Source: Escherichia coli
GTDB lineage: Bacteria; Pseudomonadota; Gammaproteobacteria; Enterobacterales; Enterobacteriaceae
Length of the DNA stretch: 64,000 nt
Direction: 5' to 3' (one strand)
Assembly: GCF_041886205.1 (NCBI RefSeq)
Contig: NZ_CP169029.1
Part shown: positions 35,160-41,266 of the stretch, in pieces
How the letters are laid out: each line of letters begins with the position of its first letter
Position numbering within the stretch: position 1 is the stretch's first letter
The notes under the pieces: model-generated
The model's input: the letters and a program-made list of their open reading frames with translations, nothing else
Told to the model about the DNA's origin: nothing
Database searches by the model: none
Translations under genes and position numbers: made by a program

Positions 35160-35183
35160 GAGGCGGCGCAATTGCGCCGCCTC
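35160..35183 (-). terminator. GC-rich hairpin abutting the katE stop (probable katE terminator)
   Basis: Perfect palindrome gaggcggcgcaattgcgccgcctc 3 bp from the katE stop; flanking U-run is weak. Confidence 0.5.
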
Positions 35184-35186
35184 CCA

Positions 35187-37448
35187 TCAGGCAGGAATTT
35201 TGTCAATCTTAGGAATGCGTGACCACACGCGGTGTGCTGCCATCAGCGTTAGCAGTTCATCCATAAAACTACCGTCAGCGCTGTCAGCTTCCACAATCCC
35301 TTCTTCACCCTGGTCAGCGACCTTGATTGTTGCTTTAAACTTGCGCGCGTCTCCCGCCAGCGCAATCGGTTTAAGGTGTTTGTAGGCTTCCATCAGGTAG
35401 TAGTTGGCATCGCCGTTGTCAGCGATATCCGCGATATTGCCGCAAGGGACAATGACCGCATCGACCGTCAGCGAAGGTGCACCGGCAAAGGTAGCGGCTA
35501 TAGGCAACACCGTACCGTCATCCGCAGTCACTTCACCCATTCGGGAGTAGAGCAGTTTGGCATGAACGCCTTTGGCCTTCAGGGCCTTGAGAATGGCCAG
35601 AAGGTCTGCCGATCTCACTTCATCATTAAGTAAAATCGCTACCACGCGACCTTTCACATCACCGTCAGGAATGGCGTACAAACTTAAGGATGGATCCTTT
35701 TTCAGACCGTTGACGTCCGGAGGTGGGGTGATATTCAGCTGGTCGTCAGTCAGTTCGATACCGAGATTTTTCGCCACCGCCTGGGCCAGAGTGAGATCAA
35801 TATGCGCCAGCTGGTCAACAACGCGCTCACGAATATACGGACGAACGACTTTGCTTAACTCAAAACTGAAACCATCGACAATATGGCGCTGCTCGAATGG
35901 CGTCTGACTTAGCCAGAACAGACGCGGATGGGAATAATATTCGCCAAACGATGGGCTGCGCTCGCGAACTTTATTTCCTTCCACGCGTTCCTGATATGAT
36001 TCAAAACCGCCGCGTTTCGGTCCCGGCGGTGTTTCGCGCGGCCAGTTATCGTTGATCGAGTTCGGTTCGTAATTCGCCGGGTTAGTGTCGATCCCCATAC
36101 GATGCATGCCATCACGCTGGAAGTTGTGGTAAGGGCAGGTCGGACGGTTAATCGGAATCTCATGGAAATTCGGCCCACCAAGACGACTGATTTGTGTATC
36201 GGTATAGGAGAACAAACGTCCCTGCAACAGCGGATCGTTGGTGAAGTCCAGACCAGGAACAATATGACCTGGATGGAATGCTGCTTGTTCGTTTTCGGCA
36301 AAGAAGTTATCCGGATTGCGATTGAGCACCATTTTGCCGACACGCTGAACGGGCACCAGTTCTTCCGGGATCAGTTTGGTTGGATCGAGAAGATCGAAGT
36401 CGAACTTGAATTCATCTTCTTCAGGAATCAACTGGAAGCCCAGTTCGTATTCCGGAAAATCGCCTGCTTCAATGGCTTCCCACAACTCGCGGCGGTGGAA
36501 GTCCGGGTCACGTCCGGTGAGTTTTTGTGCTTCATCCCAAACGAGTGAGGCTTTACCTGCCAGTGGTTTCCAGTGGAAACGTACAAACGTTGCCTTCCCT
36601 TCGGCATTAATCAGGCGGAAGGTGTGAATACCGAAGCCTTCCATGGTGCGGTAACTGCGGGGGATGCCGCGATCCGACATCGCCCACATCACGTTGTGCA
36701 GAGTTTCAGGTTGCAGAGAAACATAATCCCAGAAAGTATCGTGGGCACTTTGCCCTTGTGGAATTGCCCAGTGCGGTTCTGGTTTTACCGCATGAACAAA
36801 ATCGGGGAATTTATGCGCATCCTGGATAAAGAAGATTGGCGTGTTATTGCCAACGAGGTCAAAAATACCCTCTTCAGTATAGAACTTGGTGGCAAAACCA
36901 CGGATATCACGCACGGTATCGGCAGAGCCAGCGCCACCCTGAACGGTAGAGAACCTAACAAATACTGGGGTGATTTTGTTCGGATCTGAGAGGAAATCCG
37001 CTTTGGTGATATCGCTTAAGCTTTTATATGGCTGGAAATAACCGTGAGCTGCTGATCCGCGTGCATGAACAATACGTTCCGGGATGCGCTCATGGTCAAA
37101 GTGGGTGATTTTCTCGCGCAGAATAAAATCTTCCAGCAGCGTTGGACCACGGTTACCGGCACGCAGTGAGTTTTGATCATCGGCGATGCGCACGCCCTGA
37201 TTAGTGGTCAGCGCATAATTTTCACTGCCTTTGCGTACGTCTTCCAGAGAATTAAGTTTTTCGTTACGTGTATCAGGGGCTTTCAGGCTCCCAGGGGCGG
37301 TAGGTTGTGCACCTGGCGGTGTTGGTTCAGCCGCTGGACGATGAGATCCGTCCTCAGGTGCCAGTGAGTCCATCCCCGGTTTCGCTTCGCTGGAATCGTG
37401 TAGTGGTGACTGGTGCTGATGTAGGTTCTTTTCGTTATGTTGCGACAT
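35187..37448 (-). CDS. katE: Catalase HPII, 753 aa
   Basis: ORF track 35187..37448; large-subunit heme catalase with C-terminal flavodoxin-like domain. Confidence 0.95.
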
Positions 37449-37650
37449 TGAACTCGTCTCCTTAATTTATTACTGAAAGGGCCGCTGTTTGGTCAAAAAA
37501 CTCTCTAACTATAGACCACCAGCCAGATCCCGCTTCGGAGACTATTCTGGAAACGGTGTTATGAAATACACGCAAAGCGGGACGTACAGGGGCTAAATCG
37601 GCTAAACTACAGTTTTTCTAATTTTTAATATGCGTTTAGTGAAGCCAGTA

Positions 37651-37893
37651 ATGAAGAAACCGCTCCGCCAGCAAAACCGCCAGATTATTAGCTATGTCCC
37701 ACGCACGGAACCCGCGCCGCCAGAACATGCGATAAAGATGGATTCGTTTCGTGATGTCTGGATGCTGCGTGGCAAATATGTTGCGTTTGTACTGATAGGA
37801 GAGTCATTTCTGCGCTCACCGGCGTTTACTGTGCCTGAATCTGCCCAACGTTGGGCAAATCAGATCCGCCAGGAAGGGGAAGTGACTGAGTAA
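37651..37893 (+). CDS. cedA: Cell-division modulator CedA, 80 aa
   Basis: ORF track 37630..37893; internal start MKKPLRQQNRQIISYV. Confidence 0.85.
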   Translation: MKKPLRQQNRQIISYVPRTEPAPPEHAIKMDSFRDVWMLRGKYVAFVLIGESFLRSPAFTVPESAQRWANQIRQEGEVTE

Positions 37894-38181
37894 GGATTAC
37901 ATACCTCCCGGTTTTGCCGGGAGTTACATGGCCTGAAATTCTGTATTTCGTTGCTACATTCATTCAAACCACCTGTAACAAAAAGCTGCCTTTGACGAGC
38001 TATTGCTATAAATAAGTGATCTTTTTTCTTTAATTGTTTATTTATTTTAAAATGGTTAAGTTTTGCTAATCATTATGAGCTATTTTTGATAGTTTATCCT
38101 GTGGCGTCGCTCTTAAACTTATATTGTAAATTACTTAGATTTAAATGAGATAATAATTTTGTTAACAATATGAGGTGGGAG

Positions 38182-38986
38182 ATGTTTTCTACAAACTTAA
38201 TACAGAGTAATTATGGTGATTTAAATATTAAAAGTCTGGCTTTTGACTCTTTTAAAGAAAGGCTTGAGTCTACCATGGCGGCACTCACTTTCTTTATATC
38301 AACGGGTCAATGTGACTGCGATGAAATAGCAGAATCAAACTTCAATCGTATGATTGCCTATATGTCTAACATTAACTATGATGCCTCAAAGCCAGGAGCG
38401 CCAGCACTTAGTTTTGATACGTATCTGCAGGACAATGTTAAATATAGAGTGATAATTAATAATCTTTATGGCAGTGAGTTTCGGATAAGAGGTATTAATG
38501 AGAATTTTGTTGGGATGGATTTTACCTGTGAATTCCGACCCGAAAAAATGACGAATATTGATCAATATAAAAAACAGGTTGGTTATTCATTATTTAAGGA
38601 CTATATACTATGAAAAAAATTATATACATCCTGCCGGGAGCATTTTTGCTGCGATTCAAAAAAATGAGAGTCTCCTAAAGTTTCCTTCGATAATATCAAT
38701 GCTTAATATCAATCTTCTTTTTAATCCACTAAATCTTCCGGGAATGGGAAGTGGTGTGCTTGAAGATATTATGAGTATTCCAGATAGTTCACTGAGAAAA
38801 CGTCTCGGGTATGAGGTTTTAAGCTTCTCACTACAGGCACATTCATTGAGCCAGGAATGTATTGATAAGTTGGACATTTTTTTCGCTGACGATCTGTTTA
38901 AATATGAGGCAGTATGCATCGCCGCGATGGAACATTTAAAAAGTAAAGCAACGGCCCCTATACAAAACGGACCGTTGCCAGCATAA
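38182..38986 (+). pseudogene. ydjO: ydjO carrying a +1 frameshift (two overlapping ORF pieces)
   Basis: ORF track 38170..38613 (frame A) and 38558..38986 (frame B) overlap; the span from MFSTNL (38182) to the stop is 805 nt, exactly one nucleotide more than needed for the 267-aa YdjO I recall for K-12. Confidence 0.6.
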
Positions 38987-38989
38987 GAA

Positions 38990-40381
38990 TTAACGGTGTG
39001 CCAGTTCGGCGTCGTCTTCGCTATCCAGAATGGCTTTATCGGTTTGCTTCAGCCACTGGCTGGTCAGCGTGCCAGCTGTCATCGAGCCACTAACGTTTAG
39101 CGCCGTACGGCCCATGTCGATAAGCGGTTCAACGGAGATTAACAGCGCCACCAGGGTTACTGGCAGGCCCATCGCAGGCAGCACAATCAGTGCGGCGAAA
39201 GTTGCACCACCACCGACACCGGCAACGCCTGCGGAACTAACGGTAACAATACCGACCAGCGTCGCAATCCACATCGGGTCCAGCGGGTTAATGCCAACCG
39301 TAGGCGCAACCATCACCGCCAGCATTGCCGGATACAAACCGGCGCAGCCGTTCTGACCAATGGTCGCACCGAAAGAGGCGGCGAAACTGGCGATGGATTC
39401 AGGAACGCCCAGACGACGCGTTTGTGCTTCCACATTCAGTGGGATAGACGCAGCACTGGAACGGCTGGTAAAGGCAAACGTCAGCACAGGCCATACCTTA
39501 CGGAAGTACTTCAGCGGACTCACGCCATTAATGCCCAGCAGAATGCCATGCACTGCAAACATAATCAGCAGACCGAGGTAGGACGCGACAACGAAACTTC
39601 CCAGTTTGATGATGTCTTGCAGGTTAGAACCTGCAACCACTTTGGTCATTAGTGCCAGAACGCCGTAAGGGGTCAACTGCATGACCAGGCGAACCAGTTT
39701 CATCACCCAGCTTTGCAGGGTATCGATAGCGGTTAAGACGCGTTCACCTTTCGGCGCATCATCCTTCAGCAGTTTCAGCGCAGCTACACCGAGGAATGCG
39801 GCAAAAATTACCACGCTGATAATTGACGTCGGATTGGCTCCGGTCAGATCGGCAAACGGGTTTTTCGGGATAAAGGACAAGACCAGCTGCGGAACGCTCA
39901 GGTCAGAGACTTTACCAACATAGTTACTTTCGATGGCGTTCAGACGTGCAGTTTCTGCACCACCCTGAACCAGACCTTCAGCCGTCAAACCAAACAGGTT
40001 GGTGACCAGCACACCGACCAGCGCCGCAATCAGCGTGGTAAACAAAAGCGTACCGATGGTCAGAAAACTGATTTTGCCTAACTGAGATGCGTTATGCAGA
40101 CGGGCAACCGCGCTCAGAATAGAGGCGAAGACTAACGGCATAACGATCATTTGCAGCAGTTGAACATAGCCGTTACCAACGATGTTAAACCACTGTACAG
40201 AATCTTTAAGTACCTGGCTGTCAGAACCATAAATGGTATGCAGGGCAAGGCCAAAAACCACACCCATCACCAAACCCACCAGCACTTTTTTCGCCAGACT
40301 CCACTGTTTGTGGCGGGTCTGAGCCAGCGCAAACAGCAGTACAACGAACACCACGATGTTCGCAATTAATGGAAAGTTCAT
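38990..40381 (-). CDS. tcyP: L-cystine transporter TcyP (YdjN), 463 aa
   Basis: ORF track 38990..40381; dicarboxylate/amino-acid:cation symporter family. Confidence 0.93.
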
Positions 40382-40513
40382 CCCCGTTCTCCTGATCTTA
40401 TTATTTCTATCACTGCGTAGCAGTCATAGTGTTGGCGCAAGATTAACAGAACTGTGAGCTGGCTCTTATATTCAAATGGAATTGCTTATTCCAGAAAGGT
40501 GATTTTTGCCTTT

Positions 40514-41104
40514 TTAGTATTCAACCTGATGCTTAATAAGCCGATGAAACTGGATCTGCAAGGTATTGATCATTTGCGATGACCAACGAACAGCGCTGTT
40601 TTCGGGTAATGAATGAGGCATCCATACCGACCAGACAAATAATGCCATGCAGATAAAACGTTCCAGTTGGTTGCCCTTTTGGGGAACCAGGATAGGTAAG
40701 CGGAAACGCCAGCGGCATGGCCAGAGCAGGGGAACACCGGCGGGTGTCAGCATATCGGCAAGTATGTGGCTTAAATAACCCAGCACCATTCCTTGTAGCG
40801 CATCAGCCGGAATGAACCAGCTTTCAGGAACCTTGAGGTAAAAGGTTGCCAGCAGCGCAAATACCGCCAGCAGACTGTGGGTAAAACCACGATGCCCAAA
40901 AGCGCGGGCGATCGGTTTTGATATCCACTTTAATCGCTGCCCAAGAAACGACTTTGGGTGATCGATATCCGGTAACAAACACGTCAGGATTGCGGAAGGG
41001 ACAATATGCCACCAGTCACCCTGTGCCAGCACGGGCGTCAGCTCGGCATTTTTGGCAAATACCGCACAAGCAATAGAAAAGAGAAGGTGACCTTCCGCCG
41101 TCAT
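40514..41104 (-). CDS. ydjM: LexA-regulated inner-membrane protein YdjM, 196 aa
   Basis: ORF track 40514..41116; start MTAEGHLLFSIACAVFA. Confidence 0.88.
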   Translation of the reverse strand: MTAEGHLLFSIACAVFAKNAELTPVLAQGDWWHIVPSAILTCLLPDIDHPKSFLGQRLKWISKPIARAFGHRGFTHSLLAVFALLATFYLKVPESWFIPADALQGMVLGYLSHILADMLTPAGVPLLWPCRWRFRLPILVPQKGNQLERFICMALFVWSVWMPHSLPENSAVRWSSQMINTLQIQFHRLIKHQVEY

Positions 41105-41118
41105 GATAAAACTCACTA

Positions 41119-41138
41119 AACTGTCGATACGTACAGTA
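41119..41138. promoter_or_regulatory. LexA box (SOS operator) upstream of ydjM
   Basis: CTGT-cgatacgt-ACAG at 41121-41136, a perfect CTGT-N8-ACAG core, 17 bp upstream of the ydjM start. Confidence 0.7.
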
Positions 41139-41229
41139 TAGGATTTTTATACAGTGCAAGGAAGTGGTGACGGTGTAACTCTTTCTCTTAAATTGACGAT
41201 TAATCCGTCAGTTGAATGCAAATTCAGAT

Positions 41230-41263
41230 AAAAAACCAGGGGCAGCGTGATCACTGCCCCTGG
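41230..41263 (-). terminator. Intrinsic terminator of yniC
   Basis: ccaggggcag/ctgcccctgg 10-bp stem followed on the minus strand by a U6 run, 3 bp after the yniC stop. Confidence 0.8.
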
Positions 41264-41266
41264 TCA

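Follow-up and report, generated by a model that had tools for sequence, protein, structure and literature searches.

In Escherichia coli K-12, the gene ydjO (b1730, WP_001310874.1, annotated as 'protein YdjO') is 804 nt long, encodes 267 amino acids and lies between cedA and tcyP. YdjO is uncharacterised and exclusive to E. coli and Shigella (PMC11057252). The cedA-ydjO spacer of K-12 is an H-NS-bound 'promoter island' in the datasets of Kahramanoglou et al. and Oshima et al. (PMC3661553 Table 1), and is flagged as foreign by two published methods (PMC3661553). Genomic SELEX with K-12 placed a constitutive sigma-70 promoter with an H-NS note in the same spacer (PMC3946193). These reports of H-NS binding concern K-12 and come from ChIP-chip and SELEX (PMC3661553, PMC3946193); our literature search for 'b1730' together with H-NS found nothing relevant.

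Searches with the YdjO sequence gave no matches in Pfam, NCBIfam, PADLOC or PDB, and a single match in PHROGs (E = 0.2). A phmmer search of 1.84 billion cluster representatives recovered only fragments of YdjO itself (64-97% identical) and one further protein, P0044. This apparent homologue, 26% identical to YdjO, proved to be an artefact: the DNA encoding it (L019, a Logan contig of 2,042 bp from SRR33321306) is the E. coli cedA-ydjO-tcyP sequence with A and G swapped, showing 584 A-to-G and 444 G-to-A changes and leaving T and C unchanged. Swapped runs such as SRR33321306 can seed false remote homologues. Judging from these searches, YdjO is without a detectable homologue outside its own family. 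The single-sequence AlphaFold2 model of YdjO was unusable, with a mean pLDDT of 36 and a pTM of 0.26.

We analysed a stretch of 64,000 nucleotides from the E. coli contig NZ_CP169029.1, hereafter the window, which contains ydjO at the same place between cedA and tcyP. Unlike in K-12, only the first 125 codons of the window gene read in frame.

The ydjO locus in the window

The order katE-cedA-ydjO-tcyP-ydjM is common to K-12 and the near-identical relatives of the window. The window gene is the orthologue of K-12 ydjO both by its position between cedA and tcyP and by nucleotide identity to K-12, which reaches 95.3% over the 901-nt query 38100-39000. The features of the locus are the following:

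37630-37893, plus strand: cedA, the 5' neighbour of ydjO
37894..38181, plus strand: the cedA-ydjO spacer, upstream region of ydjO, GC 0.28-0.39
38170..38613, plus strand: mechanical upstream ORF of 147 aa from the ORF listing, beginning 12 nt 5' of the MFSTNL start
38182..38613, plus strand: truncated ydjO frame of 143 aa, from the MFSTNL start to the TGA at 38611-38613
38182..38986, plus strand: ydjO pseudogene of 805 nt between cedA and tcyP (the intact gene has 804 nt)
38557..38557, plus strand: inserted A, GAAT[A]TTGATC, alignment column 376
38558..38986, plus strand: downstream frame of 142 codons, native YdjO codons 126-267, from the ORF listing and comparison
38990-40381, minus strand: tcyP, the 3' neighbour of ydjO

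The original prediction had read the two ORFs at 38170..38613 and 38558..38986 as parts of one gene, ydjO, broken by a +1 insertion. Both are present in the ORF listing in different frames, and the comparison with K-12 bears out the identification: the locus is the same, and the window gene has one base more, with 805 nt from the MFSTNL start to the stop against 804 nt (267 aa) in K-12. The last stop of the downstream frame is the TGA at 38549-38551, while the upstream frame ends at the TGA at 38611-38613. These stop positions confirm the interval 38552-38613 that had been proposed for the shift, and the inserted base falls inside it. The predicted AT-richness also holds, as the GC content of the ydjO region is 0.28-0.40 versus about 0.5 in the flanks. 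A scan of the locus for promoters and terminators did no better than shuffled sequence.

The truncated frame comprises 125 native YdjO residues followed by 18 out-of-frame residues (IDQYKKQVGYSLFKDYIL) and the TGA at 38611-38613. Residues 126-267 of YdjO are encoded exactly in the second frame, which is the arrangement of a 'frameshifted' pseudogene, and the 'TTG start' at 38558 is the Leu126 codon of intact ydjO. In public assemblies, gene callers represent this downstream remnant as an ATG-started ORF of 95 aa that corresponds to window positions 38699-38986 only. The window gene has no single unbroken frame of 267 codons, its frame being broken after codon 125. On sequence grounds, it is a pseudogene of the YdjO family and not a functional member.

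The inserted base and the intact haplotype

We aligned the window gene to ydjO of K-12, 6EVA, O111:NM 14614 and LR-51, and compared strain 190 in addition. The alignment to K-12, proposed with the original prediction as a check, revealed one extra base, an A at window position 38557 in alignment column 376 (GACGAAT[A]TTGATC versus GACGAATTTGATC). The site is spelled GAATATTGATC in the +A allele and GAATTTGATC where the extra A is missing. Deletion of A38557 in silico restored the ORF of 267 aa, and the comparison thereby establishes, at the level of the aligned sequences, both the lesion and its position. The two-ORF layout is not shared by K-12 or strain 190, in which ydjO is intact.

A38557 has a T on either side and is outside any homopolymer; its placement is therefore unambiguous and involves no change in run length. 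The original prediction had placed the lesion within or beside a short run of A's, which was mistaken: the extra A sits between two T's, and the intact allele reads the same as the window at both candidate sites, the A6 run at 38569-38574 and the t at 38611. The A6 run at 38543-38548 and the A7 runs at 38613-38619 and 38657-38663 likewise have the same length as in the intact allele. Both A6 runs match K-12 in length too, and the K-12 run at 38613-38619 is interrupted by a C substitution that leaves its length unaltered. The change thus lies outside mononucleotide runs and is not a homopolymer indel. Of the two outcomes that had been put forward, a true pseudogene or a homopolymer read error, the former stands and the latter falls, there being no homopolymer at the site. 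Homopolymer slippage is ruled out as the mechanism by the same flanking T's. A GATC (Dam) site occupies 38560-38563, 3 nt 3' of A38557.

Two public loci (L016 and L017) carry an intact ydjO in which A38557 is the only DNA difference from the window inside the gene, and their 6.8 kb of flank shows only 3-4 substitutions relative to the window. Sister genomes with an intact ydjO are GCA_013048285.1 and SRR34028594. The repaired protein of 267 aa also exists in public assemblies (P0017). An intact progenitor is thereby identified among the compared sequences. Since this intact haplotype is in circulation and has no in-gene differences other than A38557, the insertion is recent, with no secondary decay.

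Without A38557, the window gene has the same length, start and stop as K-12 ydjO, and the two differ at 38 of 804 positions, most of them in the first half of the gene. The differences between K-12 and the repaired allele comprise 15 nonsynonymous and 23 synonymous changes, corresponding to a dN/dS of about 0.15. This ratio indicates past coding constraint, and hence that ydjO was coding before its recent loss; the intact alleles are, as far as the substitution pattern tells, under purifying selection. The synonymous divergence from K-12 is uneven along the gene: dS is 0.29 in codons 1-133 (38182-38583) versus 0.05 in the rest (38581-38986). By comparison, tcyP has a dS of 0.04 against K-12, and in cedA there is no synonymous difference at all. 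The pattern suggests a mosaic or recombinant past for the 5' half of ydjO.

Carriers of the allele and other lesions of ydjO

A 91-nt query with the site at its centre matched the exact +A context in 2 of the 5,426 complete E. coli genomes searched, namely 6EVA, from human faeces in Singapore, and wlxctx60, from faeces of an Asiatic black bear in Japan. In both, PGAP annotates a 'frameshifted' pseudogene (SE698_RS11250 on NZ_CP138428.1 and AC6IW3_RS11285 on NZ_AP045833.1, respectively) that spans exactly window 38182..38986 and is identical in DNA to the window over all 805 nt. Neither genome was among the best 15 rows of a 25-kb megablast; their near-identity to the window comes from direct blastn. 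Leaving IS1 aside, this comparison over 40 kb gave 12 mismatches and 2 gaps for 6EVA, and 3 mismatches and no gaps for wlxctx60. Being near-identical over 40 kb, the window, 6EVA and wlxctx60 belong to one clone.

The exact truncated product of 143 aa (P0001) is recorded in NCBI, ENA and Logan on about 140 contigs. These contigs are largely one clone and represent independent sequencing events, not independent mutations. Among the loci sampled, 7 of 7 contain GACGAATATTGATC, including Logan assemblies of separate runs and a metagenome scaffold. The lesion is thus inherited across independent assemblies, as read from their sequences. The allele had originally been called a strain-specific pseudogene. 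The pseudogene is upheld, but 'strain-specific' is too narrow for an allele found in two complete genomes and ~140 contigs of a clonal lineage; the +A allele is rare and lineage-specific rather than strain-specific.

Several features of the carriers were observed in passing. The metagenome scaffold (L013, ENA ERZ28579183, corresponding to window 35183-41613) carries a +A ydjO identical to that of the window throughout the gene, flanked on either side by clustered substitutions, at 37487-38176 and 40697-41303. Either recombination moved the allele or the metagenome assembly is chimeric. In 6EVA (L007, 11174-12939), chbC is annotated as 'frameshifted' and the annotation of chbB is altered; wlxctx60 (L008) has neither feature. 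This annotation and the 2 gaps of 6EVA reflect either strain-specific lesions or errors in the 6EVA assembly. An IS1 at 48141-48908 is present in the window but not in 6EVA or wlxctx60. The element is complete (768 bp), is flanked by a 9 bp target duplication, gctctgatg, at 48132-48140 and 48909-48917, and lies within the type III effector gene espL1. In 6EVA and wlxctx60, espL1 is already marked by PGAP as a frameshifted pseudogene without the IS1.

The ydjO region is matched in 4,298 of the 5,426 complete genomes (megablast, 901-nt query), and about 1,128 (~21%) gave no megablast match to it. In strain ES4 (L018, NZ_CM184348.1), for example, everything between the 3' part of celF and ydjO, both included, has given way to two copies of IS1 and gene fragments, which illustrates how the region goes missing in about one fifth of complete genomes. 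A CGA-to-TGA stop at codon 119 (window 38536-38538) was found in 941 of the 5,426 genomes, and an A7-to-A8 frameshift, in the run equivalent to window 38657-38663, in 632 (91-nt query, identity band of at least 99%); one genome apparently has one further base in the A8 stretch (a match of 92 nt to the 91-nt query). The two lesions occur together in at least O111:NM 14614, whose ydjO (KP512_RS12555) is annotated as a pseudogene, 'frameshifted; internal stop'. In LR-51 the gene (AABJ61_RS02040) is a pseudogene with 'internal stop'. In both strains the same gene is broken as in the window, but by different, independent lesions (loci L003 and L004); the window gene has neither the TGA at codon 119 nor the A8 shift. 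Overall, at least 22% of the genomes carrying ydjO have a broken copy, and +A38557 is a rare third route to its inactivation. Since other lineages inactivate or lose ydjO in other ways, the gene is dispensable in many backgrounds.

Origin and meaning of the inactivated allele

We consider it highly probable (about 0.93) that the window allele results from a recent single-base insertion that had one origin in a clonal E. coli lineage, was inherited, and truncates and inactivates the dispensable orphan gene ydjO. A spontaneous insertion of A at 38557 would have occurred once in this lineage, and the +A allele would then have been passed on by descent. The insertion would shift the frame after codon 125, and translation from the normal start would yield 125 native and 18 aberrant residues before ending at the TGA at 38611-38613, so that the C-terminal 142 codons would not be translated as part of YdjO. 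As a result, an AT-rich gene that is confined to E. coli and Shigella, and for which H-NS binding is reported in K-12, would have become a loss-of-function pseudogene. The truncated product is presumably non-functional, and the loss of ydjO may well be neutral or nearly so.

Could full-length YdjO still be made by +1 ribosomal frameshifting within 38552-38613, or the two ORFs be expressed as separate polypeptides? The downstream frame is the +1 frame of the upstream one and is open from 38552, and a shift at CUA-UGA (38608-38613) would rejoin the native frame at GAA AAA AAT. However, a single base is all that separates the +A allele from an intact gene, which means that no recoding signal has evolved, and both the orthologues and the immediate progenitor encode YdjO in a single frame. 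A programmed shift of the prfB type is not apparent either: no shift is conserved, and 38552-38613 lacks both a CUU-UGA-C slippery site and an upstream Shine-Dalgarno element at a distance of 3 nt, the closest AAGGA lying about 8 nt upstream. The downstream ORF 'starts' at an internal Leu codon that is not preceded by a Shine-Dalgarno element. Recoding or a split gene is, in our estimate, extremely improbable. We also find it very hard to believe that the extra base is a miscall in the window assembly and that ydjO is really intact in this strain. No assembly error is commoner than a single-base indel, systematic nanopore errors can arise at methylation motifs and the Dam site is close by; moreover, the chbC frameshift annotation of 6EVA, missing from wlxctx60, and its 2 gaps over 40 kb may themselves be assembly errors. 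Against a miscall, the site is no homopolymer, two complete genomes produced by different laboratories in different countries have the same allele, its 143-aa product is on about 140 contigs, and carriers of the allele include several Logan assemblies of separate runs and the ENA metagenome scaffold. A systematic error linked to GATC would recur across lineages, which the +A insertion does not; the allele is restricted to genomes near-identical to the window, and in the close relatives L016 and L017 ydjO is intact. This evidence points to A38557 being a genuine inherited mutation and not a sequencing error.

A different question is whether the loss was selected. Inactivation of ydjO could be advantageous in some niches, and +A would then be one of several convergent adaptive knock-outs and not a case of neutral decay. 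At least three different lesions are known across lineages (+A38557, the CGA-to-TGA change in 941 genomes and the A7-to-A8 shift in 632), deletions or absences of the gene also exist, and the +A lineage comes from humans, a bear and a metagenome. Purifying selection on the intact alleles (dN/dS 0.15) further indicates that ydjO is not simply junk everywhere. Yet the lesion counts reflect clonal expansion and sampling rather than the number of independent events, and the combination of TGA and A8 in at least O111:NM 14614 is what progressive neutral decay after a first hit would give. No phenotype of ydjO is known, and weak expression and weak selection are expected for genes reported to be H-NS-bound. 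An adaptive origin of the allele is very unlikely on this balance, nothing specific speaking for it. The same small chance attaches to the broader idea that positive selection drives the repeated breakage of ydjO, an orphan gene whose presence would carry a cost in certain hosts; if this were true, ydjO would be an 'antivirulence' or antagonistic-pleiotropy locus despite the purifying selection on its intact alleles.

Under the preferred reading of a single inherited insertion, the window allele is an ordinary, already annotated loss-of-function allele of a known uncharacterised gene. The ydjO gene has been proposed as a 'conserved signature' qPCR target for E. coli and Shigella (PMC11057252). 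The amplicon published there falls in a conserved 3' portion of ydjO that the window keeps. Our results are of minor relevance to this use: about 21% of complete genomes gave no match to ydjO, and at least 22% of the carriers have it broken. For the window, the corrected annotation is that ydjO is a pseudogene with its lesion at 38557 and not in a homopolymer. As a single-base insertion whose intact progenitor is in circulation, +A38557 is a clean marker of its lineage.
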